Notes: a model not told the origin generated them from the letters alone. 63,022 nt of DNA, filler included, from Coriobacteriales bacterium (GCA_031263105.1; 4 parts of 4 records of this genome joined end to end with filler, not necessarily neighbours in it); one strand, 5' to 3'; shown: positions 19,001-57,684, counted from the first letter of the whole stretch. Numbers and translations: made by a program.

Positions 19001-19035
19001 GAGGCTCGATTGCGACCACTTCGACGACCTCGGCC

Positions 19036-19342
19036 GTTACAGTTCACACCCCCACTGTCATTCCGAGCCCCGCCGAGGAATCTTTGGACACGCAGTGTCC
19101 AACGGCAGGTCAGGGGACCCTTCGACCTGCGGTCGACCGCTTACGCGGTCGAGGATCCCTCGACAGGCTCGGGATGACAGTGGGGCTCGGGATGACAGTG
19201 GGGCTCGGGATGACAGTGGGGGTCGGGATGACAGTGGGGCCCGGGATGACAGTGGGGGTCGGGATGACAGTGGGGCCCGGGATGACAGTGGGGCCCGGGA
19301 TGACAGTGGGGCTCGGGATGACAGTGGGGTGTGAGCAGTAAC
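19036..19342. mobile_element. GTTAC/GTAAC MITE with 8-bp TSD CCTCGGCC
   Basis: Ends GTTACAGTTCACACCCCCACTGTCAT / ATGACAGTGGGGTGTGAGCAGTAAC; TSD at 19028-19035 and 19343-19350. Confidence 0.92.
19166..19327. repeat. 9 x 18-bp tandem array inside the MITE
   Basis: Unit GG(C/G)(T/C)CGGGATGACAGTGG with no spacers. Confidence 0.92.
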
Positions 19343-19676
19343 CCTCGGCCTTGTCTTCAAGAATCCTGATTCAGCCTCGCAGTCGTGAGTTGGGACGGGC
19401 AGAGCAGAGGAGACGGGAAGCATGACATACAGCTCCTGCGCCTTTGTCGGCGGCAGCCTCTTGACCAGCTCCAACAATGCAGAGTCCGTCATTTTCCTCG
19501 CCTCCTTCTCGAAACTCGTGCGGTAACCACTGGAACTGACAGTATGCCAGCTAGCGCGACAATACGCGTACCCGCAGCTTGGACAGACCGACATCGCCGA
19601 GACGTCCCGTCGATCGTCGAGCGAGCGGCATTCCTTCTCGACCGCCTTGCCGCAGAGCCGAACGCCCGTTCAAACG

Positions 19677-22445
19677 CTATCGCACCTTCTTCCAGTGCGC
19701 GTAGTACGTGACGGACTTTCTGACTTTCGTTGTGGCCCCCACCTTCTTGCCCTTGCTCTGGGCCTTGGCGGTGTACCAGCCGAGGAACTTGTAGCCCGTG
19801 CGCTTGGGGGCAGGGAGCTTGCCGAGCTTCGAGGCGTGGGACCTCTTGACGGAGGAGGCGGAGGCCTTGCCCACCTTGCCGAGCTTGTCCACCCTGCTCA
19901 CCTTGCCGCCGTTGGCGTTGAGCTTGACGGTGTAGGTGTTGGCCTTCCAGTGCGCGTAGAGCGTGACGTTCTTGGTGGCCTTCGTGGTGGTGACGACCTT
20001 CTCGCCCCTCACCTTGCCGGTGTACCAGCCGAGGAACTGGTAGCCGGTGCGCTTGGGGGCAGGGAGTTTGCCGAGCTTCGAGGCGTGGGACCTCTTGACG
20101 AACGTCGGCGCGGCCTTGTCCAGCCTGCCGCCGTTGGCGCTGAGCCTCACGGTGTAGGTGTTGGCCTTCCAGTGGGCCCAGTAGGTGGCATCCGCTTTGA
20201 CCACCATGTCGGCAGCGACCCGCATGCCGTCCGTCTTGGCTGTGTGCCAGCCGAGGAACTGGTGGCCGGTGCGGGACGCCGCAGGGAGTGCACCGAGGAC
20301 AGAGCCGTAGTCCGCCTTCACGGAAGCCGACACGGCATTGCCCACCTTGCCGCCGTTGGCGTCGAACAGCATCGTGTGGACGTTGGCCTTCCATTGCGCA
20401 TAGAAGGTCACATTGCTGGTGATCTTTGTTTGGCCGCCGACCCGTGTGCCGCCCGACGGTGCGGTGAACCAGCCTTGGAAACCGTATCCGCTGCGCGTGG
20501 GCATGCTGGGGAGACTCAAGGACGTGCCGTCCAGATACGACTGCTTCGAGGAGGCCCGTCCGTTCTGGCTGTCGAACGTGACGACGAACACGTCCACGTC
20601 CTGCGGCAGAACGGATCCCTCATGGAAGCGCTCGATGAGCGCACGGCGAGCCTCGGAGTCGGGGATGCGGTTGTGGATACAGTACAGATCGAACAGCGCA
20701 GGGTTCTTGCTCACATCCAATGCGGTGAGCTTGTTGCCGTAGCAGTACAGCACGGTCATTGCGACACAGTCGCTCACGTCCAAAGCAGTAAGGGCGTTGT
20801 TCTCGCAGCTCAGACCGAGCAGCAGGGAGCAGCCGCTCAGGTTCAGTGTGGTGATATCGTTACGACCGCAGCGCAACTGGGTCAGCGCTGCCTTGTTGCT
20901 CACGTCCAATGCAGTGAGCCGGTTGCCGCCACAAGACAGGTCCTTCAGCTGGGCGTTGCTTCCCACGTCCAGAGTGGCAAGGCTGTTGTTGGCGCAGAAC
21001 AGCCAGGTCAGTGCGGTGTTCTTGCTGACGTCAAGGGCGGCGATCCTGTTGTTGGCGCAGTCCAGGTTTGTCAGCGCAACGTTCTTGCCGACGTTCAGCG
21101 CGGCGAGCCTGTTCTCGTCGCAGCCCAGACGCTCCAGCGCGGTGTTGTTGCTTATATCCAACACTGTGAGGCTGTTCTCTGAGCAGACCAGAGAGAGCAG
21201 CGCGGTGTTGCTGCGCACGTCCAAGGAGGCGAGGCTGTTCTCCGAGCAGTTCAGGGATGTCAGGGCGGTGTTGCTGCTCAGATCCAAGGAGACGAGGCTG
21301 TTCAAGGAGCAATTCAAGGATGCCAGCGCGGTGTTACCCCTCAGGTTCAGCACCGAGAGCTTATTGCTTGAGCAGTCCAGATGCTTCAGGTTGGTGCCGC
21401 AGTCCGCCACGTTCAAGGAAGTCAGATCACTGGAGGGCACAGAGAGGTAGACCACAGGCTCGGGCCGCTCGCCGAGGGTCGCGGGGACGACAACGGGCTC
21501 GGAGGGATCGCCCTCGTAGTCGACGACATAGGCCCCGTCCCCGTATCGGGCTGCGGTTCCGCTCCGAACCTCATAGACGAAGCCCTGCTCCACCTGCTCC
21601 TGCGGCAGAACCTTGCCCTCCCCGAACCGGGCGATGAGGGCATCACGGGCCTCGGAATCGGGGATACGGTTGTAGCGGAAGTCGGTCTGCCCCCTGGAAC
21701 CGCTCAGTGCCGTGCAGCCGCTCAAGTCAAGCTCGACAAGCTTGTTCCTGGAGCAGCTCAAGGTGGTCAGCACGGAGTTGTTGCCCAAGGTCAAGGTGGT
21801 GAGCGAACCGGTGGAGCAGAACAGCGAAGTCAGCGCGGTGTTGCTGCTCACGTCCAGCGTGGTGATGCCGCTACGGGAGCAGGTCAGGCCGGTCAGCGCG
21901 GTGTTGTTGCTCAGGTCCAGTGCGGTGAGCCTGTTCATAGAGCAATCCAGGTAAATCAATTCGGTGTTCCTGCTCACGTCCAGCGTGGTAAGCCTGCTGT
22001 CGGAGCAATCCAGGTATTTCAGGTCGATGCCACAAGCCGTCACGTCCAAGGAGTGAGGACGGCCCTCTTGCCCGTCCACATGCTTCCAGGCCAACTTGAC
22101 GTAGACCACGGGCTCCTCGTCGAGGGTCGCAGGGACGACAACAGCTCGGGAGTCGCCTGCATAGCCAGTGATATAGATTCCGGGGCCGTAATCCACGCCT
22201 GCATCGCGAAACGCGTAAATGAAGCCCTCGGGGCTTACCTGCGTCGTTGCAGCCGCCCCAAGCGACGTTGCGGTCGCATCGAGCGCCCCGGACGTCTCGT
22301 TCGTCTCGGGCGGCTCGTTCGTCTCGGGCGGCATCACGTCCTCCTCCACACCGAAAGCCGCAGGCAGGCCGCTTAAGGACAAAGCCAGCACGACTGCCAG
22401 AGAGCCGACGAGGCCCTTGCGCAACGCCACCCGTACACGCATCAT
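19677..22445 (-). CDS. Surface LRR protein with four C-terminal InlB B-type (Flg_new) repeats
   Basis: Signal peptide similar to the first LRR gene; two LRR modules; FDxxGG..PxRxGYxFxGWYT..YAHW repeats. Confidence 0.9.
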   Translation of the reverse strand: MMRVRVALRKGLVGSLAVVLALSLSGLPAAFGVEEDVMPPETNEPPETNETSGALDATATSLGAAATTQVSPEGFIYAFRDAGVDYGPGIYITGYAGDSRAVVVPATLDEEPVVYVKLAWKHVDGQEGRPHSLDVTACGIDLKYLDCSDSRLTTLDVSRNTELIYLDCSMNRLTALDLSNNTALTGLTCSRSGITTLDVSSNTALTSLFCSTGSLTTLTLGNNSVLTTLSCSRNKLVELDLSGCTALSGSRGQTDFRYNRIPDSEARDALIARFGEGKVLPQEQVEQGFVYEVRSGTAARYGDGAYVVDYEGDPSEPVVVPATLGERPEPVVYLSVPSSDLTSLNVADCGTNLKHLDCSSNKLSVLNLRGNTALASLNCSLNSLVSLDLSSNTALTSLNCSENSLASLDVRSNTALLSLVCSENSLTVLDISNNTALERLGCDENRLAALNVGKNVALTNLDCANNRIAALDVSKNTALTWLFCANNSLATLDVGSNAQLKDLSCGGNRLTALDVSNKAALTQLRCGRNDITTLNLSGCSLLLGLSCENNALTALDVSDCVAMTVLYCYGNKLTALDVSKNPALFDLYCIHNRIPDSEARRALIERFHEGSVLPQDVDVFVVTFDSQNGRASSKQSYLDGTSLSLPSMPTRSGYGFQGWFTAPSGGTRVGGQTKITSNVTFYAQWKANVHTMLFDANGGKVGNAVSASVKADYGSVLGALPAASRTGHQFLGWHTAKTDGMRVAADMVVKADATYWAHWKANTYTVRLSANGGRLDKAAPTFVKRSHASKLGKLPAPKRTGYQFLGWYTGKVRGEKVVTTTKATKNVTLYAHWKANTYTVKLNANGGKVSRVDKLGKVGKASASSVKRSHASKLGKLPAPKRTGYKFLGWYTAKAQSKGKKVGATTKVRKSVTYYAHWKKVR

Positions 22446-22589
22446 GATAGTCTCCTTTTCTATCTCCTGCCAGTCTCCTCCTCCCTTTTGGAAAACGCCG
22501 AAACGTCGCCTGTGCCCAACGTGGCACACCGACGCGCACTCAGCACTTTTCCAGAACCACACGCTTTTGAAACCTCATACTGTAAAGAT

Positions 22590-22618
22590 AGTATATCATC
22601 TTCCTCCCTCACTGGCAA
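22590..22618 (-). promoter_or_regulatory. Sigma70 promoter of the second LRR gene
   Basis: Minus strand TTGCCA-N17-TATACT. Confidence 0.8.
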
Positions 22619-22646
22619 GAGGATATGCCACCCCTGTCGCCTGCTG

Positions 22647-22939
22647 GTCACTGATCGTTACTGTGTCCACACCCCCACTGACATCCCGCGCCTGCCGAGG
22701 GATCCTCGACCGCGCCCGCGGTCGACCGCAGGCCGAGAGGCCCCCTGACCTGCCGTTGGACACTGCGTGTCCAAGGATTCCTCGGCGGAGCTCGGAATGA
22801 CAGTGGGGGTGTGGACAGTAACCACTGATCCCCTCTGTCATTCTGAGCCTGTCAAGGATTCCTCGGCTCCGGCGCTGCCGGAGGCAGCGCCGGAGCCTGC
22901 CCTGAGCGCAGCCGAAGGGCTCGGGGTGTGGACAGCAGC
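22647..22939. mobile_element. Older degenerate MITE-like copy hosting the 22657 insertion
   Basis: Reconstructed left end GTCACTGATCCCCTCTGTCATTCTGAG; right end GGGGTGTGGACAGCAGC; flanks CCTGCTG / CTTGCTG. Confidence 0.55.
22657..22822. mobile_element. GTTAC/GTAAC MITE with 8-bp TSD CACTGATC
   Basis: TSD at 22649-22656 and 22823-22830; same core as other copies, opposite orientation to 19036. Confidence 0.92.
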
Positions 22940-23168
22940 CTTGCTGTCACTTGCGGCGCTTGCATGGATGCTGCTCACGGGACGCCCCTCCCACGAAGTG
23001 CCCCGCCCTTCTCGCCCCGCACTGACACCCCTCGCCCTGCACACCGTGCGCGCTGCGTGACAGATGTGCGGGGATACAGGATAATGGAGGGCATCTCCCT
23101 GCCCTTTGCAAGGAGCAGGGCCGTGTGCTGGTGGAGCGTCCATGGACGAGTGAGAGACAGGTACCCTG

Positions 23169-24485
23169 ATGCAGGATTCCCTTCCGTCGAGGCTGATAAG
23201 CGTCGAGGACGCACGGGCCACCGTGCTCGGGCATATACGGCAGATGCCCACCGAACGGGTGGCGCTCATCGAGAGCCACGGGCGCATACTCGCCCAGGAT
23301 GCGGCCAGCGACATCGACATCAGCCCCTTCGACAACAGCGCCATGGACGGCTTTGCCGTGCGCTTCGCGGACTTCGAGGCCGCAAGCGTGAGCGCGGACG
23401 CGCCCCTGACCCTCGACATCGTCGGCGTGATCGGGGCGGGCGCCGTCTACGAGGGCACCCTGCAGCAAGGACAGGCCCTGCGCATCATGACGGGTGCGCC
23501 CCTGCCCCAAGGCGCCGACACCGTCGTCAAAATCGAGGAGACGACCGTCGACGGCGCAGACGCCGGCTGTCCCGAAGGACGCCGGGTCGCCTTCAGGGCC
23601 ATGCCGCAGCGCGGCGAGCACATACGGCCCCGTGGCATGGAGGCCCGCAAGGGGGACGTGCTGCTCCGCGTGGGGGAGAGGATCAGCCCCCCGGGAGTCG
23701 GCCTGCTCGCCTCGACCGGCAATGCCGAGGTGCAGGTCTACCGCCGCCCCCGTGTGGCGATCCTTGCCACGGGCAACGAGCTGGTGGACGTGACCTCAGT
23801 GCCCGGGCCGGGCCAGATCCGCAACTCCAACAACTATGCGCTCGCCGCCGCCGTCATCGAGGCGGGCGGCATCCCCACCGTCATGCCCTCCGTCGAGGAC
23901 ACGCGCGAGGCGCTGGTCGAGGCGCTCCTGGCCGCCCTTGCCGCGCACGACTTCGTTGTCACGAGCGGCGGCGCGGCGGAAGGCGACTACGACTTCATCA
24001 CCCCCGTCGTCCGTCAGCTCGGCGAGCTGTTCTTCAACAAGGTCAACATGAGGCCCGGCAAGGCACAGACCTTCGGCATCATCGAAGGCACGCCCGTCTT
24101 CGGGCTGCCGGGCAACCCCGGTGCCGCGTTCGTGGGCTTCGAGGTGCTCGTCCGCCCTGCGCTGCGCTTCATGCAGGGCCTGCACGAGCTCGACCGCCCC
24201 TTCACCATGGCCGTCCTCACACAGGACGTCAAAAAGAAGGGAGAGGAGCGGCGGTGCTACCTGCGGGCCCGCCTTGAGCGGGGCGGCGGCGAGCGGGGCG
24301 AGGGCGAGCGGCAGGGCGGGGGCGGGACCTACTGCGTCACACCGGAGCCGAACCAGTCCTCTGCCCTCCTTGGTGCGCTCAACCGCAGCAACTGCCTCCT
24401 CGTGGTCCCGGAAGGCCCCGACCCCCTTGCCGTCGGCAGCCTTGCCTGCTGCCTGCGCCTCGACAGGGAGGAAGGCACGGTCTGA
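23169..24485 (+). CDS. moeA: Molybdopterin molybdenumtransferase
   Basis: SAMDGFA, IMTGAPLP, ATGNEL, TSGG, MRPGK and GLPGNP. Confidence 0.96.
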   Translation: MQDSLPSRLISVEDARATVLGHIRQMPTERVALIESHGRILAQDAASDIDISPFDNSAMDGFAVRFADFEAASVSADAPLTLDIVGVIGAGAVYEGTLQQGQALRIMTGAPLPQGADTVVKIEETTVDGADAGCPEGRRVAFRAMPQRGEHIRPRGMEARKGDVLLRVGERISPPGVGLLASTGNAEVQVYRRPRVAILATGNELVDVTSVPGPGQIRNSNNYALAAAVIEAGGIPTVMPSVEDTREALVEALLAALAAHDFVVTSGGAAEGDYDFITPVVRQLGELFFNKVNMRPGKAQTFGIIEGTPVFGLPGNPGAAFVGFEVLVRPALRFMQGLHELDRPFTMAVLTQDVKKKGEERRCYLRARLERGGGERGEGERQGGGGTYCVTPEPNQSSALLGALNRSNCLLVVPEGPDPLAVGSLACCLRLDREEGTV

Positions 24486-25492
24486 TGGGCATCGACCAGC
24501 ATGGGCGCACGATAGACTACCTGCGCATCTCCGTCACCGACCGTTGCAACCTCCGCTGTCTGTACTGTATGCCCGAGGAGGGCGTCGCTTGGAGGCCCCA
24601 CGACGCCATGCTCTCCTTGGAGGAGATTGCCCGCCTCGTCGCCATCGCCGCCAAGGAGGGCTTCTCGCGCATCCGCCTGACCGGCGGCGAGCCGCTGGTA
24701 CGCCTTGGCATCGTCGACCTGGTGCGCGACCTGTCGCAGACACCGGGCATCGAGCGGGTCGCCATGACCACGAACGGCATCCTGCTCCCCCGCTACGCCG
24801 ACGCGCTGCGCACGGCGGGCCTGAGCCGCGTGAACATCTCGCTCGACACGCTCGACCCCGCCCAGTTCACCCACATCACACGCTGGGGCAACATCGACGA
24901 CGTGTACCGTGGCATCGATGCGGCCCTCAAGACGGGCTTCGACCCCGTGAAAATCAACGCCGTCGTGGTGCGCAGCCTCGACCAGGACCTCCTCGCCTTC
25001 GCGCGGCTCTCCCTCGACCGTCCGCTGCACGTGCGCTTCATCGAGTACATGCCCGTGGGCGACCCTCAAGGCGAGGACGGGCTCGGCTGGACCCGGGCGG
25101 ACACCATCCCCAACGAAGAGCTCATACGCAGCCTCGACGCACGCGCCGAAGCGGCGGGGCTCGGCAGGCTCATGCCGCTTCACCAGGCCGCGAGGCCCGA
25201 GGGCTGGGGGCCTGCGCAGTACTATCAGTTCAAGGGCGCGCAAGGGACGGTGGGCTTCATCTCCGCCCTCTCACGCCACTTTTGCAGCGAATGCAACCGC
25301 CTGCGCATGACCGCAGAGGGCAAACTGCGTCCCTGCCTGTTCAGCGACCAGGAGTTCGACGTGAAGGATGCCCTGCGGACGGGCGATGACAGCGAGGTGC
25401 GGCGCGTCCTCGCCGAGGCCTTGGGCGCCAAGCCCGACGAGCACCACAGCCAGGTGGGCACCGAACGCCTGATGTCGCAGATCGGAGGATAG
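24485..25492 (+). CDS. moaA: GTP 3',8-cyclase
   Basis: [17 protein letters not shown] and C-terminal GG. Confidence 0.97.
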
Positions 25493-25493
25493 T

Positions 25494-25988
25494 ATGGCAA
25501 ACACCCTGACGCATCTCGACGAGAAGGGCGCTGCCCGCATGGTGGATGTCGGCGCCAAGAGCAGCACCGTGCGCCTCGCGGTCGCCGAGGGCTTCATCGC
25601 CATGGCCCCCGCCACGCTTGCGATGATCGTCGAGGGCACGGCACCGAAGGGCGACGTGCTCGCCGTCGCACGGGTGGCGGGCATCATGGCGAGCAAGCAG
25701 ACCTCCGCACTCATTCCCCTGTGCCACCCGCTCAACATCACGAAGGCGGCCGTGGAGCTTGTGCCGGTGCCCGCAGGAGAGCGGGCGGACGGACGTGTGG
25801 GCATCCACGTGCAGGCCACACTCGGCGTCACCGGCCAGACGGGCATCGAGATGGAGGCGCTCACCGCCGCATCGGTCGCCTGCCTCGCCGTCTACGATAT
25901 GTGCAAGGCGGTGGACCGAGGCATGGAGATCGGCGAGGTGCGCCTGCTGCACAAATCCGGCGGCAAGAGCGGGTTGTGGGAGCGGTAA
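25494..25988 (+). CDS. moaC: Cyclic pyranopterin monophosphate synthase
   Basis: [25 protein letters not shown] and KSGGKSG. Confidence 0.97.
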
Positions 25989-25992
25989 GAAG

Positions 25993-26147
25993 GTTGCCGT
26001 CGCATCCTCACTGTCATTCCGAGTGCAGGAGCGAAGCTCCGGAACCGAGGAATCCTCGACAGTGGGGTGTCGGCAGCTCACTGTCATTCCGAGTGCAGGA
26101 GCGAAGCTCCGGAACCGAGGAATCCTCGACAGTGGGGTGTCGGCAGC
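25993..26147. repeat. MITE/REP-related element with an exact ~70-bp tandem duplication
   Basis: CTCACTGTCATTCCGAGTGCAGGAGCGAAGCTCCGGAACCGAGGAATCCTCGACAGTGGGGTGTCGGCAG x2. Confidence 0.85.
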
Positions 26148-26173
26148 ATAGAAAACGATAGGGAGAAACGGCC

Positions 26174-26644
26174 ATGGACGTCAGGTTCGCGATAGTCACG
26201 TGCTCGAGCACGCGCAGCTATGAGGAGGACACCGCAGGGGCGGCGCTGGAGGAGCGCATCCGTGCGAACGGCTGGACGCCGCTCGGCCGCGTCGTGGTGC
26301 CGGACGACCGCGCGCGCATAGGCGACGCCATCATCGAGGCGGCGGCCGAGGGTGCGGACATCGTGCTGACCTGCGGGGGCAGCGGGCTTTCGCAGGCGGA
26401 CGTGACGCCCGAGGCGACCGCAGACGTATGCGAGCGCAACGTCCCCGGCATCGCCGAGGCCATGCGGGCGACCTCGCTCAAGGTCACGGGGCGCGCCATG
26501 CTCTCACGCGCCGTCTGCATGCAACGCGGGAGCACCTTGGTCGTCAACCTCCCCGGAAGCCTCAAGGCGGCAACCGAGTGCTTCGACGCAGTCTACGAGC
26601 AGTTCGAGCACGCTGTCCAAATGACCGCCGGCGGAGGGCACTGA
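26174..26644 (+). CDS. mog: Molybdopterin adenylyltransferase (MogA/MoaB family)
   Basis: VVPDD, GGSG..DVTPEA, PGIAEAMR, AMLSR and NLPGS. Confidence 0.9.
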   Translation: MDVRFAIVTCSSTRSYEEDTAGAALEERIRANGWTPLGRVVVPDDRARIGDAIIEAAAEGADIVLTCGGSGLSQADVTPEATADVCERNVPGIAEAMRATSLKVTGRAMLSRAVCMQRGSTLVVNLPGSLKAATECFDAVYEQFEHAVQMTAGGGH

Positions 26645-26669
26645 GCGAGAACGCAGGGTTCGGCTGCGG

Positions 26670-26733: not shown

Positions 26734-26737
26734 GGGG

Positions 26738-26856: not shown

Positions 26857-26956
26857 NNNNNNNNNNNNNNNNNNNNNNNNNNNNNNNNNNNNNNNNNNNN
26901 TTAATTAATTAANNNNNNNNNNNNNNNNNNNNNNNNNNNNNNNNNNNNNNNNNNNN
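26857..26956. other. Artificial contig spacer
   Basis: N-TTAATTAATTAA-N. Confidence 0.98.
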
Positions 26957-26967
26957 GTGACCCCGAT

Positions 26968-27121
26968 GTTACTGAGGTCACACCCTCGCTGTCATTCCGA
27001 GCCTGCCGAGGGATCTTTGGCTGCGGAGCAGCCAACTGACCCTGTTGGACACTGCGTGTCCAAAGATTCCTCGGCGGAGCTCGGAATGACAGTGGGGTCT
27101 GTACAGTAACACCCCAGTAAC
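26968..27121. mobile_element. GTTAC/GTAAC MITE with 8-bp TSD ACCCCGAT
   Basis: TSD at 26960-26967 and 27122-27129; doubled right tip CAGTAAC-ACCC-CAGTAAC. Confidence 0.88.
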
Positions 27122-27149
27122 ACCCCGATTGTGCCGCGCCGCTCCCGGT

Positions 27150-27163
27150 CGAACAGATGTTTG
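27150..27163. promoter_or_regulatory. LexA (SOS/Cheo) box
   Basis: CGAACAGATGTTTG matches Gram-positive GAAC-N4-GTTY and overlaps the lexA -35. Confidence 0.85.
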
Positions 27164-27189
27164 ATTTTCTCTCCGGCATGCCCTATACT
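27161..27189 (+). promoter_or_regulatory. lexA sigma70 promoter
   Basis: TTGATT-N17-TATACT. Confidence 0.8.
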
Positions 27190-36172: not shown

Positions 36173-36186
36173 CCACCTTTCCTTTG

Positions 36187-36276
36187 TGCGGGCGCCCCGG
36201 CTGCGGGCGCTTGACCTGCGGTCGCCCCGGCTGCGGTCGCCTCGGTTGCGGGCGCCCCGGCTGCAGGCGCCCCGGC
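36187..36276. repeat. 6 x 15-bp intergenic tandem repeat
   Basis: TGCGG(G/T)CGCCCCGGC-like units. Confidence 0.8.
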
Positions 36277-36289
36277 CGGCCGGACAGCG

Positions 36290-37618
36290 CTATGCCGCCG
36301 GGCCGAACACCCTCACCACCGTCGCCTCCACGTGGTTGTCGTCTTCCGCCAGGCGCTGAGAGGAGGTGACGAAGCGCTCCTGCGTGCCGCAACCGACGAG
36401 CACCTCGCCGAAGTCAGGGCACTGCGGCGGGGCATCGACGACGAAGTACCTCTGCTGCGCGGAGTCGAAGCCGACGATATTGACGGTGGACTTGACGATG
36501 AGCCAGTCCCCCAGACGGACGACGGGGCACAGTGGCTGTCGGCTCACGTGCAGGTACCTGCCGTCCGCAAGCTCCTGGTAGGTCCCGAAGCGGGAGATTC
36601 CACCTGCATAGTCGTAGTTGTCCTCGATGCAGAAGGAGAACGCCCCGCCCACGTAGAGCGCATGGGAGACCCTGAGCGACTGTGGCAGCACCCTGAAGTC
36701 GACCGACCGGTCGTCTGCGCAGTTCAGCGCCGTGAGCTGGTAGTAGATGTTCGCGGTGTCGACACGGGGGACAAAGGTCACGACCCCCTCGGTGACAAGC
36801 GGGTTGGTGAGCATCCTCCCATGAGAGGTGAGGACGGTATAGGGCTCGCCCGGACGAACGCCGTCCTCTCCTTGGAGGGAGCCTGTCGGGGAGAAGGCGA
36901 GCGCCCGCAGGAAGGAGTCCTCCTGGTTCGCAGGGCCGGTCGCAAGGGGCATGACCGTCCAGTAGGCCTTGTCTCCCGCAACCGCAAGCATCGGCGGCTC
37001 GTAGTCGGCGCTGTTCTCCCCCACCAAGCGCGCCTCGCCGAGCGCGACCTGGGCAGCCCCTTGGCCGCCCAGCTGCGCAACGTACACCCACCACCGGAAG
37101 TCGCCCAGATCGAGCTCGACCCAGATGAGGACGTCCTTGCTGGCACGGGCATCATAGATGACGACGTTCCTGCCTTTGTTGACGGGTCCCTCGACCATCG
37201 TCGTTGCCGCACCGGTGCCCAGGTCGAGCATTCCGAGCTTCCGCAGGCTCTCGCCCTCCCCTCCCGGAAGCAGCGCGAGCGCAGCCGTCGCGTCAACCTG
37301 ATGGACAAGGCTGCCGGACGGCAGGTCCCAGGTCGCCTCGAGCCTCACATGCTCCGCGAACGGCACTTCCTCGAACGCTGCCGCCTCGAGCACCTGCTCG
37401 GACGCGACATCGAGGGTCACGATGTCCTCGTCCTCGACAGCCTTGAGGACCATGTCCTCGGCCTTCGGCTCCTTGGCGGAGGCGCATCCGCCCAAGGCGG
37501 CCGCTCCCCCCATGGCGACGGCGGCCATCCCGCCAGCGGCGGCAACCGTCCGCGCCACGAAGTCACGGCGCGAGAGCGTGGGCGCCTGCAGGGGGTCATT
37601 TTGTTCTTTGTCCGTCAC
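36290..37618 (-). CDS. Tat-exported lipoprotein of unknown function
   Basis: SRRDFV Tat motif and LGGC lipobox. Confidence 0.78.
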   Translation of the reverse strand: MTDKEQNDPLQAPTLSRRDFVARTVAAAGGMAAVAMGGAAALGGCASAKEPKAEDMVLKAVEDEDIVTLDVASEQVLEAAAFEEVPFAEHVRLEATWDLPSGSLVHQVDATAALALLPGGEGESLRKLGMLDLGTGAATTMVEGPVNKGRNVVIYDARASKDVLIWVELDLGDFRWWVYVAQLGGQGAAQVALGEARLVGENSADYEPPMLAVAGDKAYWTVMPLATGPANQEDSFLRALAFSPTGSLQGEDGVRPGEPYTVLTSHGRMLTNPLVTEGVVTFVPRVDTANIYYQLTALNCADDRSVDFRVLPQSLRVSHALYVGGAFSFCIEDNYDYAGGISRFGTYQELADGRYLHVSRQPLCPVVRLGDWLIVKSTVNIVGFDSAQQRYFVVDAPPQCPDFGEVLVGCGTQERFVTSSQRLAEDDNHVEATVVRVFGPAA

Positions 37619-37640
37619 CTGTGTACTCGTTGTCCGTGTT

Positions 37641-37952
37641 GTTACTGTTCACACCCCACTGTCATCCCGGCCCCACTGTCATCCCGGCCCCCACTGTCAT
37701 CCCGAGCCTGCCGAGGGATCCTCGGCCGCGCAAGCGGTCGACCGCAGCTCGAAGGGCCCTCTGGCCTGCCGTTGGACACTGCGTGTTCCGTGGGCCTGTC
37801 GGTTCCATGGGCTCACCCGCTGCTTCGCAGCTTCGCCCCGCGACAGCCCACTGGGCTGTCGCGCCGTCCTCGCTGAAAACGCGGTGCGTTTTCCGGGCGC
37901 TCGGACCCAAGGATTCCTCGGCGGAGCTCGGAATGACAGTGGGAGTGCGAAC
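37641..37952. mobile_element. GTTAC-family MITE with 8-bp TSD TCCGTGTT and extra internal module
   Basis: TSD at 37633-37640 and 37953-37960; triplicated CCCCACTGTCATCCCG at the left end. Confidence 0.88.
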
Positions 37953-38008
37953 TCCGTGTTCCGATCATGTGCCGTGCGCCGAACCTTCCTAAAGCACGAC
38001 CCTGTATA

Positions 38009-38017
38009 TGGTACAGT
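38009..38017 (+). promoter_or_regulatory. Extended -10 promoter
   Basis: TGGTACAGT upstream of the gene at 38110. Confidence 0.55.
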
Positions 38018-47592: not shown

Positions 47593-47775
47593 GTTACAGT
47601 TCACACCCCCACTGTCATTCCGAGCTCCGCCGAGGAATCTTTGGACACGCAGTGTCCAACGGCAGGTCGGGGGGCCCTTCGGCCTACGGTCGACCGCTGG
47701 CGCGGTCGAAGATCCCTCGGCAGGCGCGGGATGACCGGGGGGGCCCGGGATGGCGGTGGGGGTGTGACGTGTAAC
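47593..47775. mobile_element. GTTAC/GTAAC MITE without a recognisable TSD
   Basis: Same termini and core as the 19036 copy; degenerate right end. Confidence 0.82.
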
Positions 47776-47984
47776 CCGGTCGGCGCTCTTTTCCGCCCTG
47801 CAAAGCAGCTCGCGTTGACCAATGCGGCCCCTGCGGCAGTTTGTCAAGGACTTCTTAACCGCGGGGCAAAAATCTTTTCAACGCAAGGGGTGGGCTTGGC
47901 CAGCTACCAGCGGATTCGCTTCGTTTCAAAATGCGCTTGCCTATGGTAAAGTATCATAAAGACAGTTGCAGAGGACATTTGACG

Positions 47985-48386
47985 ATGGACGCACAGGAAA
48001 AATACGATTATTGGCTCGACATAGCGCAGTACGACCTTGAGACCGCAAGCGCGATGTTCGACAGCGGGCGGTGGCTCTATGTCGTGTTCATGTGCGAACA
48101 GGCGGTAGAAAAACTCGTCAAGGGATTGTATGTGCTATACATTGATGACAACATCCCCCGTGTCCATGTCATCCGCCAGGTCATAAAAAAGTATGACGGC
48201 AAACTGCCCGCTCCCGTGAACGAAGGCCGTTACAGGTTTTTCGACAAACTCTCGGCGTTTTACCTTGAGGGCCGGTATGCGGATTACAAGCAAAAGTTGA
48301 GTGCACTTGTCGACAAGCAGGAGGCCGAAAACGTGTTGGAGCAAACGAGGGAGGTGTTCGCATGGCTGTTGACCTTGAAACCGTGA
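47985..48386 (+). CDS. HEPN-domain protein
   Basis: W...A..DL..A, F.CEQAVEK.VKG, H and Y..GRY pattern. Confidence 0.87.
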   Translation: MDAQEKYDYWLDIAQYDLETASAMFDSGRWLYVVFMCEQAVEKLVKGLYVLYIDDNIPRVHVIRQVIKKYDGKLPAPVNEGRYRFFDKLSAFYLEGRYADYKQKLSALVDKQEAENVLEQTREVFAWLLTLKP

Positions 48387-48679
48387 ACTCAGTCGTAAGG
48401 AATTACGCCGACGACGTGCGGCGCGTCATGCCCGTTGACAGGGCTGTGCTTTACGGCTCCTACGCCAAGGGCAGCGCGACGGAACACAGCGATGTCGACA
48501 TCTGCTTCTTCCTCGGGAGTTTCGACGGAAAGCGCAGGGTGGACGTCATCGCAGAACTTCTCGGATTGACCGACAAATATTCCGATGTGTTCATCGAGCC
48601 GATAGCATTCCCTGTCTCTGAGCTGCAAAACGACAATCCTTTCGTAAAAGAAATAGTGCGAACGGGCAGGGAAATCTAA
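48362..48679 (+). CDS. Minimal nucleotidyltransferase (MNT)
   Basis: LYGSYAKG....SDVDI; overlaps the HEPN gene. Confidence 0.9.
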   Translation: MAVDLETVNSVVRNYADDVRRVMPVDRAVLYGSYAKGSATEHSDVDICFFLGSFDGKRRVDVIAELLGLTDKYSDVFIEPIAFPVSELQNDNPFVKEIVRTGREI

Positions 48680-49596: not shown

Positions 49597-50253
49597 CTAT
49601 AGGGACGTCTCCTCGAACGTCTCGGAGACTATCTCCTCGGGCGCGTTGCGCACCTCGCCCGGCAACGCCCCGTCAGGGTTCATGCGGTGACGGGAATAGA
49701 GGGAGGAGGGCGTCGTGCCTGCGTCTTCCGGCAAGGGGGCCAGCACATCGACGGCATCGGGATGGGCTGCCCTCAGGTCCTCGAGCTCGCCGTACTCCAG
49801 GCAGCGGATCTGGCAGGACTGGACGCAGACAGGGTTCTCGCCGCTGTCGATGAGGTCTTTGCAGAAATCGCACTTCCGTGCGGCACTCCTCGCCTTGCTC
49901 ACATAAGGCGCATTGAAGGGGCAGGCGGTGGCACAGGCGCCGCATCCTATGCAGGTCTCCTCGTCTATCCAGACGATCCCGTCCTCGCGTTTCTCGATGG
50001 CGCCTGCCGGGCATGCGGCAAAGCAGGCAGGCAATGCGCAATGGTGGCATCCTGAGGTCACGGCATAGGAGAACAGGCCGGACGCGCTCATGACGCCGTT
50101 CTCGTCAACGGTCCATGAGCCGCCGCTGTAGTCGTAGACGCGCCTGAACTTCTCGCCCGCCGGAAGGTCGTTCTTGTCTTTGCAGGAGATGATGCACATC
50201 CTGCAACCGAGACACTCGTTCGTGTTGACGTAAAAGCCGTATTGGGCAACCAT
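49597..50253 (-). CDS. DmsB-like 4Fe-4S subunit
   Basis: QYGFY, CLGCRMC..CKDKN, CHHC, CIGCGAC and KCDFC. Confidence 0.93.
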   Translation of the reverse strand: MVAQYGFYVNTNECLGCRMCIISCKDKNDLPAGEKFRRVYDYSGGSWTVDENGVMSASGLFSYAVTSGCHHCALPACFAACPAGAIEKREDGIVWIDEETCIGCGACATACPFNAPYVSKARSAARKCDFCKDLIDSGENPVCVQSCQIRCLEYGELEDLRAAHPDAVDVLAPLPEDAGTTPSSLYSRHRMNPDGALPGEVRNAPEEIVSETFEETSL

Positions 50254-50266
50254 GTCGTACCCCTCC

Positions 50267-52927: not shown

Positions 52928-52995
52928 CTCCTGCTCCTTCCTTTGTGCGATCTCTCTCACTTGTCTTTTGATTCCGCAGGGGCCAGTCAACAAAA

Positions 52996-53245
52996 GTTCA
53001 CTGTTCCCGCCCCCACTGTCATTTCCCGCCCCCACTGTCATCCCGAGCCTGCCGAGGGATCCTCGACCGCGCAGCGGTCGATTACGACCGGAAGGCGCCT
53101 CGACCTGCGGTCGGCTGCTTCGCGTCCCGTGGGCCTGTCGGTTCCATGGGCTCACCCGCTCAGGGGCTCACCCGCTCAGGGGCTCACCCGCTCAGGGGCT
53201 CACCCGCTGCTTCGCAGCTTCGCCCGGAAACAGCACACTGTGCTG
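52996..53245. mobile_element. Partial GTTAC-family MITE with 16-bp tandem repeats, cut by the contig end
   Basis: CCCCACTGTCATCCCGAGCCTGCCGAGGGATC core; internal module shared with the 37641 copy; GGGCTCACCCGCTCAG x3+ at 53148-53208. Confidence 0.8.
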
Positions 53246-53345
53246 NNNNNNNNNNNNNNNNNNNNNNNNNNNNNNNNNNNNNNNNNNNNTTAATTAATTA
53301 ANNNNNNNNNNNNNNNNNNNNNNNNNNNNNNNNNNNNNNNNNNNN
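53246..53345. other. Artificial contig spacer
   Basis: N-TTAATTAATTAA-N. Confidence 0.98.
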
Positions 53346-53422
53346 GAGCGCCCAGATGCGTGAATTGGACGCGATGTGAGACTAAGACAGTGCCGAGCGC
53401 TGAAGCGCTCGGCATAACACGA

Positions 53423-54445
53423 CTAAAAACGGCGCGAAAGTGGATTAATCGGCGCCTCCCTAGGGGTTAGATAGCGGTCTTCGGTCGGATGATAGAAGAT
53501 TTCACCGCATCTAAGGGTATTGGATGGCTTGTTTCTGTTCAGCCTCAGGTACTTTGTGGTGTCTTTTGGCATCAGGTTTCCTACGATGCTCTTCCCCAAG
53601 TGAGTTTGGGCTGCCAGATACGAGCCTTCAGGCACTTGCGAGATTCTTTCCCTATCCCTCTTGGGCGTGACATCGACGTGGCTGTCCGTTCGTGAGAAGG
53701 TCACCTCGCCGCGCTTCGACTTGACGTATGGCTCTCCTAAGCCTGCGAGGGCTTGGCCGACGGTTGCATATGTCGGCAATCCGAAGATATTTGGGCATTC
53801 GCTATACGGTGCATGTGTCTTATCGGGAAATACAAAACCGTTTTTTCCATAGGTGGCGACAATGAAGACTCTCTCGCGCAGTTGGGCTACGCCATAATCA
53901 GCCGCGCAGCATACTTGCCATTTCGGTGTGTAACCTATTGATTCAAGCTCAGCAATAAACAACTCAAATACTTCGCCCCTGCGACCGCTTGGGCCTTTTG
54001 CGCCGAGCAGCCCTTTGACCTGCTCTAGCAGAATCACTTTTGGCTTAATCACTTTGGCAAATCGCACTATCTCGAACAGCAGCAGACCCCTGTCGTCTTC
54101 CAACGCCTTTTGCTTTCCCGCAAGCGAGAACGACTGACAAGGTGGCCCGCCGAACAACAAATCAAGCCGTCCAGGCACCATGGACAACGCTTCAAGTAAT
54201 TCTTTTGGATCTACCTCTCTTATGTCCGATTCTATGACTTGCACATTGCTGTGCTCTCGGTCTTTTGCTGCTCTCAACGTGTTGCAGCAATGCTTGTCTA
54301 TTTCAATTTCAGCAAGCACTTCGAACCCGGCCTTCTTTATGCCGATGTCCATTCCACCTGCTCCAGTAAACAAGCTTGTTGCTGTCGGATATGACACTTG
54401 TCTCCCTTTTGAATCGCTGACACAAGTTTTTTTGAAACCAGTCAC
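53423..54445 (-). pseudogene. DNA cytosine-5 methyltransferase, C-terminally truncated
   Basis: FTGAGG, GGPPCQSFS, EQV and QLRERVF; stops just after RYLTPRE and lacks motif X; much lower GC. Confidence 0.75.
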
Positions 54446-54568
54446 GTTAAGTATACATCACAACTTTTTCTGATTGCTGCTATAGCGTACTAGAAATCAT
54501 GGATGGTTTATACCTCATCATGTGGTATGCCTGCTGTGGGTCGGGGCGAGCGGGGTGGAGCCTCGGCC

Positions 54569-56668
54569 CTAATCGGTGCTTCCCTGTGCGGTGCGGCGGA
54601 TGGCCTCGCGGGTCAGGATGCTCTTGCTGCCGGCGTAGGTCGCGAGGAAGTAGCCGCCGTAGACGAGCACGATGACCAGTGCCGCGAACAGGCTGCCCGA
54701 GAGGATGTCCGTGTCCTTGAAGGCGGCGAACACGGCGCTCAACGACCGTATCCCCACCAGTGAATGCACCAGGGCAAGGACGAGCGGCGCCCCGAAGTAG
54801 ATGGCTATCTGGCTGAAGGCGGCACGGTACAGCATCCGGTCCTCGGCGCCTATCCGGGCGAGCAGGCGGTAGCGGCCGATGTTGTCGCTTGTCTCGGAGA
54901 GCTGTGCGATGGCGAGCAGGGCCGCCGAGGCGATGAGGAAGACGACGCCCAGGTACAGGGCGACATAGGCCACGATGGCCGTTGCGGTGCTGCCGGCCTG
55001 CATGGCAGCGATGCGGGACTCCCTCCAGAAGCCGAGGATGGTGCCGTCGGGGCTTTTGAGGTTCCGGTCGGCGAAGACCTCGCCGAACTGCGCCTCGAAG
55101 GCATCGGCGTCGCCTGCGGCCGCCTGCGCGTAATCGACGTTCAGTATCGTCCGTAGCACGGGCGGTGCGTCCGGGCCCTCGTGTGCGACGTAGCCGTCGG
55201 GCACGACGAGGTTCATCTCCGTGACACGCACCGACGAGGTCTCGACCATGTCGGTCAAAAGGAGCGAGGGGTCGGAGTGCAGCGTGCCGCCTGCCGCGTC
55301 GGGGCCGCCCGCGGCCTCCAGGGTCGGGCTGCCCTCCAGGTAGGCGGCAAGCATCCCTTTCCACTGGGCCACGGGGTTGTTGGCCTGCACCGCAAAGGTC
55401 CCTTCCGCGAGCTCGAGCGGCTGCCTGCCCTGCATGGCGAGGCTCGCGTTGTAGTCCGACAGGCGTATGAGGTGCGGCTTGACCTCCACAGGCGTGCCGT
55501 CGGGGTTGTGCAGCGTGACGGTGATGCGGCTGTCGAAGACGGGCACGACGCTGTAGGAGCGGGCGAGCGCCTTGAGGTCGATGCCCTGGCCGTCGAGCGC
55601 CGCGACCGGGTCGAGCTCCTGGTAGGGCACGTTTACGGGGAGCCCCTCGTCGTCGGGCTCCTGCCGTTGGATGGTGAGCGTGGCATCGAAGGGCGTGTTC
55701 GCGCGCTGCTCTGCGGCAAAGGCCCCCGCGATGCTCGTGCCGGTGGAGAGCGAGGAGATGGCGAGCGTCACCATGAGGCAGACGAAGGTCATCGACAGGT
55801 AGGTGGTGCGGATCTTGCTGTTGATCTGGCGCAGCACGAACATGTTGAGGTTGCGCAGGTAGACGCCCTTGCATTGTTGGATGAGCTTCAGGAAGAAGCC
55901 CGAGAGCGAAAGGAAGAACAGGAAGGTCCCGCCGATTGCCGGGAGCATGCCTGCGGCGAAGACCACCGCGTTCGTGAAGAAGCCCTCCTGGCCGATGAAG
56001 TGGTACGCGACGCCCAGGAGCGCAAGCGACACGACGAAGAGCACGACCGAGCGCCCGAGGCGGGGAGGCGTCGTGCCCTCGTTCGTGCGGGCGCTGGCGA
56101 ACAGGTCGATGAGCTGCTGCCTGTTGACCATGACGACGTTGAAGACGAGGGTGAACAGAAAGGTCAGCCCGAAGTAGAGGGCCGTCTTGAGGACCGTTGC
56201 GGCGGAGAACACGAAGTGGTACGAGCTGATCTTGCTGCCCATCAGGTGCGCCGTCACAAGCGCCATGCCCTGCGACACGAGCACGCCTATGAGCACGCCG
56301 GCGACCAGCCCTGCGAGGCCGACGAGCACGGTCTCCATCACGAGTATCCGCGAGATGGCGCCCTTCTCCATGCCGAGTATCAGGTAGATGCCGAACTCCC
56401 GCTTCCTCCGTTTGATAAGGAAGCCGTTGGCATAGATGATAAGGAAGCACAGGACGACGGAGATGAACACCGAGAAGGCGCCCATGAAGCGCCCGAGCAT
56501 CTGGAGCGCCAGCTTCTGCGAGCTGGACGGGTCCATCATGACCTGTTGGCTCTCGATGGAGTTGAAGACATAGAAGATGCAGACGCCGAAGGCTATGGTG
56601 AGGAAATAGATGGAATAGTCGCGGAAGCTCTTCCTGACGTTTCCCAGGGCGAGCCTATACAACTTCAC
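54569..56668 (-). CDS. BceB-like FtsX-family ABC permease
   Basis: Y.IYFLT, KRRKREFGIYL.LGM, large extracellular loop, Y.LL..IG. Confidence 0.9.
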   Translation of the reverse strand: MKLYRLALGNVRKSFRDYSIYFLTIAFGVCIFYVFNSIESQQVMMDPSSSQKLALQMLGRFMGAFSVFISVVLCFLIIYANGFLIKRRKREFGIYLILGMEKGAISRILVMETVLVGLAGLVAGVLIGVLVSQGMALVTAHLMGSKISSYHFVFSAATVLKTALYFGLTFLFTLVFNVVMVNRQQLIDLFASARTNEGTTPPRLGRSVVLFVVSLALLGVAYHFIGQEGFFTNAVVFAAGMLPAIGGTFLFFLSLSGFFLKLIQQCKGVYLRNLNMFVLRQINSKIRTTYLSMTFVCLMVTLAISSLSTGTSIAGAFAAEQRANTPFDATLTIQRQEPDDEGLPVNVPYQELDPVAALDGQGIDLKALARSYSVVPVFDSRITVTLHNPDGTPVEVKPHLIRLSDYNASLAMQGRQPLELAEGTFAVQANNPVAQWKGMLAAYLEGSPTLEAAGGPDAAGGTLHSDPSLLLTDMVETSSVRVTEMNLVVPDGYVAHEGPDAPPVLRTILNVDYAQAAAGDADAFEAQFGEVFADRNLKSPDGTILGFWRESRIAAMQAGSTATAIVAYVALYLGVVFLIASAALLAIAQLSETSDNIGRYRLLARIGAEDRMLYRAAFSQIAIYFGAPLVLALVHSLVGIRSLSAVFAAFKDTDILSGSLFAALVIVLVYGGYFLATYAGSKSILTREAIRRTAQGSTD

Positions 56669-57500
56669 GGCTGTCGCCTCCCAGAAGGGTCACGACCTCG
56701 AGTATCCGGTCGAAGAGCTGCCGACGGCTGTCGTTGCCCCGGACGACCTCGTGGAAGATACGGCCGTCGCGGATGAAGAGGATGCGGTCGCAGTGGCTGG
56801 CGGAGAACGCGTCGTGGGTCACCATGAGGATGGTCGCGTCGCGTTCGTGCACGAGCGCCCGGAAGCTCTCGAGCAGCGCACGGGCCGACTTGGAGTCCAG
56901 TGCGCCCGTGGGCTCGTCGGCGAGCACAAGGGTCGGGCGCGTGACGATCGCGCGGGCGCAGGCCACGCGCTGCTTCTGGCCGCCGGATACCTGGTAGGGG
57001 TACTTGTCCAGGATGTCGGGGATGCCGAGGGTCCGTGCGACCTCCTGCACGCGCCGGTCCGTCTCGGGGGGCGCGACCCGAAGGATCGTCAGCGCCAGCG
57101 CGATGTTCTCATAGCAGGTGAGGGTGTCGAGCAGGTTGAAGTCCTGGAACACGAAGCCCAGGCGCTCGCGGCGGAAGCGCGAGAGCTCCTTGCGGCCCAT
57201 CGTGGTCACGTCGACGCCGTCGATGAGGATATGGCCGGCGCTCACGGTGTCGATGGTCGAGATGCAGTTGAGCAGCGTGGTCTTCCCGCTGCCCGACGCG
57301 CCCATGACGCCGATGTACTCGCCCCGCCCCACAGCGAAGCCTATCCCGTCCAGCGCCTTGGTGACGTTGCTCTTGGTGCCGTAGTACTTCTCGACGTCGA
57401 CCGCCACGAGGGCGGCCTCGGCATCGACGTTCCCAGATGCGGCATAGTGTTCGTTGCCCCTACGGGCATGGGCAGCCCCCTCGTACCGACGGGTTCTCAT
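56655..57500 (-). CDS. BceA-like ABC ATP-binding protein
   Basis: GASGSGKTT, VFQDFNLLD, SGGQKQR, ADEPTGALD and MVTHD. Confidence 0.93.
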   Translation of the reverse strand: MRTRRYEGAAHARRGNEHYAASGNVDAEAALVAVDVEKYYGTKSNVTKALDGIGFAVGRGEYIGVMGASGSGKTTLLNCISTIDTVSAGHILIDGVDVTTMGRKELSRFRRERLGFVFQDFNLLDTLTCYENIALALTILRVAPPETDRRVQEVARTLGIPDILDKYPYQVSGGQKQRVACARAIVTRPTLVLADEPTGALDSKSARALLESFRALVHERDATILMVTHDAFSASHCDRILFIRDGRIFHEVVRGNDSRRQLFDRILEVVTLLGGDSREVV

Positions 57501-57560
57501 GATAGCTTCTCCTTTACTGGTCCAAGGTGCTTCGGGAGCGTGCGGCACGCTCGTTCAGCT

Positions 57561-57613
57561 GTTGCACGGGGCGCCCGCTCCCCTTCAAGGAAGGGGAGCG
57601 GGCGCCCCGTGAC
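57561..57613. mobile_element. 53-bp hairpin mini-element with 8-bp TSD GTTCAGCT
   Basis: 22-bp perfect stem at 57565-57611; ends GTTGC/GTGAC; direct repeats at 57553-57560 and 57614-57621. Confidence 0.75.
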
Positions 57614-57651
57614 GTTCAGCTTACCAGTTTCCCCGCAGAGGAGGCCATCGA

Positions 57652-57684
57652 TTGTCCTTACGAGGGGCTTACGTTATGGTAAGG
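57652..57684. promoter_or_regulatory. Predicted promoter TTGTCC-N17-TATGGT overlapping a CTTAC-N6-GTAAG palindrome (possible BceR-type site)
   Basis: Motifs read directly; divergent from the bceA-like gene. Confidence 0.5.

Follow-up and report, generated by a model that had tools for sequence, protein, structure and literature searches.

Introduction

Among bacterial transposases, only a few lineages, TnGBS, ISLre2 and ISKra4, are known to place their insertions at a constant distance upstream of promoters. Elements of the prokaryotic Mutator-like transposases have inverted repeats of 18–39 bp with a terminal C and generate 8- or 9-bp target duplications (PMC3942029, here and throughout cited for its available part). 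The same source describes TnGBS/ISLre2 and the ISKra4 group as DDE elements that keep a constant distance upstream of sigma-A promoters, leaving 13–17 bp between the -35 box and the end of the element; either orientation is seen for ISKra4-type elements whose inverted repeats are near-perfect, and IS256 insertions are not enriched at any position relative to a promoter (PMC3942029). ISLre2 occurs almost only in Firmicutes (PMC9208149, available part). [quoted passage not shown] The elements, their duplications and their offsets are confirmed, and comparison with related genomes supports a promoter-guided MITE family in Coriobacteriia, apparently working at a new spacing in which the target duplication lies about 53 nt upstream of the -10 hexamer.

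Results

Elements and target duplications

Five elements in the window carry exact 8-bp duplications of mutually different sequence, and each of their coordinates in the initial annotation was reproduced. The first, el1 (307 bp, 19036–19342), has terminal inverted repeats that begin GTTACAG and end CAGTAAC, lies between copies of CCTCGGCC at 19028–19035 and 19343–19350, and has an interior made up of a tandem array of the 18-nt unit GGCYCGGGATGACAGTGG. el2 (166 bp, 22657–22822; duplication CACTGATC at 22649–22656 and 22823–22830) is a single long hairpin with a predicted folding energy of -61.5 kcal/mol (z=-9.9). el3 (154 bp, 26968–27121) is bounded by ACCCCGAT at 26960–26967 and 27122–27129, with just 11 nt of its left flank present in the window. 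el4 (312 bp, 37641–37952; duplication TCCGTGTT at 37633–37640 and 37953–37960) ends on the right in the shortened terminus GTTCGCAC. el5 (57561–57613; duplication GTTCAGCT at 57553–57560 and 57614–57621) is a perfect hairpin of 53 nt with a 22-bp stem.

The terminal inverted repeats of el1–el4 follow the pattern GTTACWG..CACACCCC(C)ACTGTCATYCCG at both ends, which can also be written GTTACWG..CACACCCC(C)ACTGTCAT. They span approximately 20–30 bp, and both strands end in ...GTAAC-3', that is, in a terminal C. This terminus pattern has six matches in the window and none in 100 shuffles. Inward of the outer terminus, el1–el4 are built from 1–9 copies of an 18–19-nt unit (CCCCACTGTCATYCCGRGC; nine copies in el1), a CGAGGRATC arm and a variable centre. 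The 53-nt hairpin el5 belongs to a different sequence family and has related ends, GTTGCAC...GTGAC, with the same duplication length and the same offset. The initial annotation had treated all five as one MITE family; this holds for el1–el4, which share the GTTAC...GTAAC ends, and el5 has to be set apart as a separate hairpin family. At least nine family copies or fragments are present in the window, and none of the elements (53–312 bp) contains a transposase gene. With inverted repeats, duplications of constant length and varying sequence, no internal transposase and many copies, el1–el4 are MITEs. No conserved target sequence is visible in the duplications, either in the window or in the relatives described below.

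Spacing to predicted promoters in the window

To locate -10 hexamers we used a fixed rule: TAnnnT agreeing with TATAAT at four or more of six positions, on the strand that reads outward from the element, with the gap measured from the duplication. A script applying this rule returned the offsets given in the initial annotation, namely 49 and 54 nt for el1, 53 for el2, 54 for el3, 51 for el4 and 53 for el5, so that all five elements fall within 49–54 nt. The predicted promoter beside el1 (18968–19000, minus strand) belongs to a leucine-rich repeat (LRR) surface-protein gene and has a -35 box GTGACA (19000–18995), a -10 box TACAGT (18978–18973) at 49 nt and an overlapping TATAAT (18973–18968) at 54 nt. 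That beside el2 (22590–22618, minus strand; TTGCCA-17-TGn-TATACT) is predicted to serve a gene for an LRR/Listeria–Bacteroides repeat protein. el3 lies upstream of the predicted lexA promoter (27150–27189, plus strand), with a LexA box CGAACAGATGTTTG at 27150–27163, a -35 box TTGATT at 27161–27166 and a -10 box TATACT at 27184–27189. For el4 the candidate is an extended -10, TGgTACAGT (38009–38017, plus strand), of a cytidylate-kinase-like (cmk-like) gene, and for el5 a weak predicted promoter, TTGTCC-17-TATGGT (57652–57680, plus strand), of a HycI-like gene with a likely GTG start at 57792.

For the background, positions were drawn at random from 48 non-coding regions upstream of genes, in the window and in the loci of its 15 closest relatives, a null chosen deliberately to be the most favourable to chance. 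Under this null the probability of a hexamer is p=0.035 at a gap of 49–54 nt and p=0.024 at 51–54 nt. Five of the nine readable flanks in the window are at the offset (P=5.6e-6), and a scan statistic that allows the interval to lie at any position reached the observed value in 0 of 5000 shuffles. An independent two-hexamer scan for -35 and -10 boxes called 19 promoter-like sites in the window, compared with about 7 expected from shuffles, and these include exactly the promoters of el1, el2 and el3, so that three of the five were called blind. When the flanks are aligned, the -35 and -10 boxes are the sole conserved features. Two other origins of the hexamers were considered and rejected: as pseudo-ends resembling the ACAGTAAC terminus, since only one or two of eight resemble it, and as parts of a larger repeat, since the flanks have no mutual homology.

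Some details of individual insertions stand apart from the spacing. el2 sits within the terminal repeat of an older, degenerate family copy (approximately 22643–22940, with remnants at 22643–22656 and 22831–22940), the left end of which, after the 8-bp duplication, is approximately 39 nt from the same -10 box; el2 and the older copy are two successive insertions beside one promoter. At the right end of el3 (27104–27129) the 11-nt sequence CAGTAACACCC occurs twice in tandem before the duplication completes, which may be the footprint of a second insertion or of an excision, or may result from replication slippage. On the minus strand the left terminus of el3 (26966–26995) can form an outward hybrid promoter, called by the promoter scan, in which ATGACA within the inverted repeat is followed by an 18-nt spacer and by TAAC plus the first two flank bases, giving TAACAT. 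Both genes downstream of el1 and el2 (16124–18955 and 19677–22562), which have a MITE upstream of their promoter, are large minus-strand surface-protein genes encoding leucine-rich repeats (63-bp period) and Listeria–Bacteroides repeat domains.

Spacing in related genomes

The sample used for replication comprised 33 genome bins from the bacterial family of the closest relatives of the window (labelled G001, G004, G023, G142 and so on). Elements with the same kind of ends were found in two of them, G142 and G023. In a first round these yielded 8 elements with 12 flanks, 4 of which are at the offset (P=5.7e-4), with gaps of 53 nt (L153, upstream of a recJ-like gene), 53 nt (L149), 54 nt (L157) and 53 nt (L189).

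The core GTCATTGCGAGGAGCG, which marks a sister subfamily, was matched 36 times in G023, 14 times in G142 and 21 times in G001, with a few matches elsewhere (11 of the 33 genomes). For the second round 79 loci were fetched, and in 82 loci the boundaries were set blind by a script from the GT...AC ends and the duplication only; a duplication had to match at 7 of 8 positions or better, or at 8 of 9 for 9-bp duplications, and the offset window of 49–54 nt was set beforehand. Fifteen of the 82 loci could be bounded, twelve with GTT-type ends and three doubtful, and all 15 were counted. Seven of their 30 flanks have a hexamer at 49–54 nt (P=6e-5), and 8 of 36 outward hexamers fall within a 6-nt window where 1.7 are expected. 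The gaps are 52 nt for L207 and L231, 53 nt for L218 and L155, and 54 nt for L211, L214 and L215, with L202 just outside the pre-set window at 55 nt. The twelve clean elements have duplications of 8 bp (L207, L211, L215 and others) or 9 bp (L156, L218, L208), and in this round elements lie in both orientations relative to the promoter (3 left, 5 right). A rule-based set of single flanks added 17 flanks, with 5 at the offset: two new and clean (L206 and L212, both 54 nt), one doubtful and two already counted. Relaxing the duplication criterion to 6 of 8 gained nothing reliable.

Across all sets there are 19 insertion sites at 49–55 nt, distributed as one at 49, one at 51, two at 52, seven at 53, seven at 54 and one at 55 nt, so that 53–54 nt holds 14 of the 19. 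The initial annotation had put forward promoter-guided insertion and had asked whether further copies would keep a tighter offset than a background; in the related genomes they do so relative to the gene-upstream null, in two replications. As a negative control, 65 repeats of other phyla with the same inner core show no peak at the corresponding distance.

Searches beyond these genomes returned little. GTTAC-ended terminus patterns had no matches in species-representative genomes and none in metagenome contigs, and order-wide searches gave fragments only, in 6/400 and 4/400 genomes. Of the candidates that did appear, the two matches to an internal-module pattern are chance matches inside a coding region, seven of nine loci from a looser terminus pattern are unrelated repeats of other phyla, the single viral match to the terminus pattern is due to chance, and L159 and L173 are chance matches in coding DNA.

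Conservation of the target promoters

At most of the 19 sites TTGnnn lies 16–18 nt upstream of the hexamer, and at all of them the start of an open reading frame (ORF) follows 5–112 nt downstream. Because the gene starts float over this range, the promoter rather than the start codon is the fixed reference. The hexamers themselves are diverse (TATACT, TACAGT, TAATAT, TAGTAT, TATGGT and others).

Relatives without an element allow these promoters to be assessed. In three element-free relatives the lexA promoter is kept: its -35, TTGatt, is overlapped by a LexA box and followed, after a 17-nt spacer, by TATACT or TATAAT. The region upstream of lexA is MITE-free in 4 of 5 relatives (G142, G004, G001 and G077). 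The block ATGGTACAGTAA of the cmk-like promoter is kept in 3 of 3 relatives, all MITE-free at this place. To judge from the TTGnnn boxes, the ORF starts downstream and this conservation, the predicted hexamers probably belong to real promoters.

The same promoter has also been reached more than once. lexA was targeted in the window by el3 (gap 54 nt, duplication ACCCCGAT) and in G023 by an element of the other subfamily (gap 53 nt, duplication TGTCTTCT). A second orthologous promoter, TTGACA...TAATATGAGCAyATGCTCAT, has an insertion in G023 (L202, gap 55 nt, duplication CTCGTCTG) and another in G142 (L231, gap 52 nt, duplication TATAGCAG). Comparison of the genomes thus indicates that the lexA and TTGACA...TAATAT promoters were targeted independently in different genomes.

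Empty sites in relatives, which the initial annotation had suggested looking for, were found at lexA and the cmk-like gene as described and, most precisely, for L211 of G023: in G142 its two flanks adjoin, the element is missing and the target is present once, in diverged form. The flanks of L218 lie on two different contigs in G142, and no HycI orthologue was found in five relatives with the query used.

As a separate observation, the promoter at L212 in G023 has a LexA box between -35 and -10 and lies upstream of a radical-SAM-like ORF; SOS-regulated promoters account for 3 of the 19 targeted sites (lexA twice and L212).

Discussion

A proposed mechanism for the fixed spacing

We consider it likely that the elements were inserted in a promoter-targeted way, at an offset of about 53 nt upstream of the -10 hexamer, and were moved in trans by a DDE transposase. 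The elements are non-autonomous MITEs (53–312 bp here), long hairpins whose repeats start with GTT(A)C..CAC(A)CCC and have C as their last base. The transposase, acting in trans by cut-and-paste or copy-out, would make a staggered cut of 8 or 9 bp, and a sigma-70-type promoter would position it, either via bound RNA polymerase or through the promoter DNA itself, such that the duplicated 8 bp land about 53 nt upstream of the -10 hexamer and 27–32 nt upstream of the -35. By the standard convention the -10 hexamer occupies -12 to -7. On that convention the duplicated 8 bp would cover about -66 to -73, and the cut would lie roughly at -66 to -74 relative to the start of transcription, past the upstream contacts of the polymerase by a short way; we infer the contact with the polymerase as well as these positions. 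Such a site would be a safe harbour, in which the gene and the core promoter are both left unbroken and either orientation of the element is accepted. The same offset is seen for the 53-nt hairpin, for elements of 166–312 bp and for a different subfamily, which makes the internal content irrelevant to it. The tight peak, this indifference to size, internal sequence and orientation, and the repeated targeting of orthologous promoters argue for targeting at the insertion step rather than for survival bias or an internal function.

By analogy with ISLre2 and ISKra4 the transposase would most likely be Mutator-like. The initial annotation had seen a fit between the ends and duplications and the Mutator-type transposases, and this fit stands, with repeats of 20–30 bp that finish in C and with 8- or 9-bp duplications (compare PMC3942029). 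Mobilisation of the p-MULT (Mutator-like) kind is the most likely one on the features of the elements themselves: the terminal C, repeats within 18–39 bp and the 8/9-bp duplications are all present, and a cognate transposase is the item missing from the set. ISLre2-like fragments occur in 6 genomes of the family, none of them next to GTTAC ends; the one in G005 is located where a contig ends. An ISLre2-like fragment was rejected as the partner because its ends lack a GTTAC terminus, and an IS256-like transposase gene in one family genome (L161) was likewise rejected for lack of GTTAC ends.

A number of observations weigh against the promoter-targeted reading. No transposase or nuclease was found among 64 ORFs of the window scanned against Pfam, as the initial annotation had also noted for transposases, and with the ISKra4 and ISLre2 models 0 of the 33 family genomes reached the cut-off, giving fragments only; a transposase ORF bounded by the same termini, which the initial annotation had hoped for, was thus found neither in the window nor, with these models, in the 33 genomes. 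The promoters of el4 and el5 fall under the threshold of the two-hexamer scan. The four other copies in the window, which have no duplication or are cut by a contig end, lack the offset hexamer in every readable flank: the copy without a duplication at 47593–47776 has outward -10-like hexamers at 30 and 96 nt on the left and none on the right, which is off the rule, and the copy cut by a contig end at 52997–53245 has no hexamer at the offset in its left flank, where a molybdopterin oxidoreductase gene starts after 69 nt. In the relatives the first round gave no hexamer at 49–54 nt for L156 (both flanks), L151, L158 and L185, L156 being a 69-bp element with a perfect 9-bp duplication that lies downstream of a gene, and the second round gave none in the window for L156, L208, L221, L225, L219, L246 and L255, three of these being doubtful elements. 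The earlier claim that all duplication-bearing copies are at the offset therefore holds in the window (5/5) and not in the relatives, where about half are (7–8 of 15) and the others lie after gene ends or between co-directional genes. For the window's own elements no empty allele was seen among the contig joints listed from three runs. Finally, all the genomes are fragmented metagenome bins, in which copies at contig breaks are lost. Metagenome bins commonly lose insertion sequences. For this reason the absence of a transposase is weak evidence.

Alternative explanations

That chance and hexamers picked by eye could account for the spacing is hardly credible: the original sample was five and two of its promoters, those of el4 and el5, were missed by the two-hexamer scan, but a fixed rule with automated boundaries and a pre-set window has since replicated the offset twice in other genomes, the scan statistic was not reached in any of the 5000 shuffles and the phyla-wide control has no peak. 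We also give little credence to random insertion followed by purifying selection, in which damaging copies are removed and the survivors are those just upstream of promoters. MITEs do generally survive in intergenic DNA (PMC10969869, available part), and some of the intergenic regions here are short, approximately 130–170 bp without the element at el4 and el5. Selection of this kind, however, predicts a lower bound with a broad tail and not 14 of 19 sites at two adjacent positions, and it does not account for independent insertions at orthologous promoters within 1–3 nt of one another. For el1 and el2, over 300 bp of further intergenic DNA was available, and the null was already limited to gene-upstream non-coding DNA.

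An explanation that we find similarly improbable is that the offset was selected rather than targeted, the terminal 20–30 bp bearing a site for an activator or architectural protein that helps the promoter at a fixed helical phase. The terminal repeat is the sole part common to all subfamilies, a function located there would fit either orientation, and upstream activators often bind near -70. It would need very many insertions, though, leaving many neutral copies nearby, and further -10-like hexamers are almost absent from the flanks close to the elements; housekeeping promoters, that of lexA among them, moreover function without an element in 4 of 5 relatives. The question of what the transposase recognises is a closer one. 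It is possible, if on balance doubtful, that it reads the promoter DNA itself, through the -10/-35 sequence, a bend or melting, with no contact to RNA polymerase. The -35 and -10 boxes are the sole conserved features of the aligned flanks, and the spread is alike to either box (49–55 nt to the -10, 27–32 nt to the -35). Against this, the -10 hexamers are diverse and are united only by a polymerase-like consensus, and the known promoter-targeting lineages are proposed to contact the initiation complex, a contact that is itself unproven (PMC3942029). More tentatively still, and in our opinion improbably, promoter-targeted insertion could be the work of a new transposase or targeting domain outside the known promoter-targeting Mutator-like lineages, one that docks two helical turns further upstream on RNA polymerase bound at the promoter, cuts at about -66/-74 and uses the phyla-wide TGTC-tagged palindromic modules of the MITE bodies as its subterminal binding sites. 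If this were true, it would be the first link of widespread orphan bacterial repeats to a transposase.

Other features of the window

The window is a scaffolded draft with 64.6% G+C, in which four contigs are joined by three N linkers (16080–16179, 26857–26956 and 53246–53345), each of the form NNN-TTAATTAATTAA-NNN. An Illumina adapter is present at 1–50, and there are poly-G runs of 19 nt (151–169) and 58 nt (16022–16079). MITE copies contain or adjoin three of the contig breaks of the window. One of these copies is represented by its left terminus only (16011–16021), 29 nt past the stop of a glycosyltransferase gene and followed by the poly-G artefact; of a further copy the right part remains (51–147), between the adapter and the poly-G run, such that its adjacency to the following DNA is unreliable.

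The cytochrome bd subunit I of the window is 84–64% identical to homologues in Coriobacteriia genome bins, and all sampled words of a 4-kb stretch of the window are present in one termite-gut metagenome run. In run X1 the bins that contain el3 and el4 have a summed contig depth of 1324 and 4047, compared with 25–92 in other bins, values that sum all organisms and give no copy number. Contigs of this run bridge the promoter-side junctions of el3 and el4, reaching 53 and 39 letters into the element. Run X1 may be the source sample of the window.

Some further repeats and genes lie near these elements. Two tandem 70-bp units (CACTGTCATTCCGAGTGCAGGAGCGAAGCTCCGGAACCGAGGAATCCTCGACAGTGGGGTGTCGGCAGC) at 25995–26150, between moaC and a MoCF-biosynthesis (mog-like) gene, contain the inner module without GTTAC ends or a duplication. 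Between purC and the gene before it, at 36180–36290, lies a G+C-rich array of approximately 20-nt units (GCGGGCGCCCCGGCT); although it has a 12-mer in common with el5, the two are unrelated. Close by on the downstream side of the MITE copy that lacks a duplication, a HEPN domain gene is followed by a nucleotidyltransferase gene (47931–48679), a pair of the HEPN/MNT type. No Rfam RNA families or tRNAs were found in the window, and its MITE copies match no Rfam family.

Relation to described elements

A literature search by sequence string and by words found no paper on these elements or on any promoter-targeting MITE, and the available part of a MITE review (PMC10969869) mentions none. The inner core of the elements, the 18-nt sequence CCCACTGTCATYCCGAGC, is more widespread, with at least 65 loci in many phyla, where it forms head-to-head palindromic repeats without GTTAC ends. 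Its hosts among the matches listed include Bacteroidales, Dehalococcoidia, Acidobacteriota, Alphaproteobacteria, Patescibacteria and others, and it often occurs as arrays of units followed by the CGAGGRATC arm. In this respect the MITEs resemble the CGTC/TGTC-tagged palindromic repeats of Di Nocera et al. (PMC3733652, available part): the inner module TGTCATYCCGAGC...CGAGGRATC is a TGTC tag followed by ATTCC/GGAAT, arranged head-to-head and present in many phyla. The unit found here pairs over 5 bp with a loop of 12–14 nt, whereas the CGTC-tagged repetitive extragenic palindromes have a stem of 8–9 bp and a loop of 4–5 nt, which places the unit outside that superfamily. As far as the available part of PMC3733652 describes them, the tagged repeats also lack duplications, an outer GTTAC inverted repeat and any known promoter offset, unlike the MITEs described here.

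The use of the transcription machinery as a ruler for a safe harbour has parallels in position-specific retroelements of eukaryotes, which we take as analogies only. Dictyostelium TRE5-A inserts approximately 48 bp upstream of tRNA genes. Yeast Ty3 inserts at Pol III starts (cited in PMC3942029). In both, the enzymes, the polymerase and the domain of life are different.

Closer to the present elements are those of the IS256 family and their MITEs, which have in common with them duplications of 8–9 bp and Mutator-like terminal features; the promoter preference seen here is not seen for IS256 (PMC3942029).

The closest likeness is to TnGBS, ISLre2 and ISKra4, with which the elements share a fixed distance to the promoter, 8/9-bp duplications and repeats ending in C, and, as in ISKra4-type elements, insertion in both orientations. 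They differ in being MITEs without genes, in having a host in Coriobacteriia (Actinomycetota) and in being known here without a matching transposase. They differ also in the spacing, since at the sites with a recognisable -35 box the element end is 35–40 bp from it here (the 8-bp duplication plus 27–32), about two helical turns further than the 13–17 bp that define the known lineages, and this too counts against placing them there. Promoter-targeted insertion in these elements would therefore represent a second, clearly different spacing (about 53 nt to the -10, element end 35–40 bp from the -35), carried by MITEs in another phylum. In practical terms the end of an element would predict a -10 box 61–62 nt away and could serve as a promoter marker in uncultured Coriobacteriia, and the elements would explain many of the contig breaks in these metagenome bins. 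A small promoter-guided system for safe-harbour insertion would, once its enzyme is in hand, be of interest to developers of insertion tools. Two spacings approximately two helical turns apart, that of TnGBS, ISLre2 and ISKra4 and that described here, would limit the models that can be drawn up for the docking of a transposase on the initiation complex.

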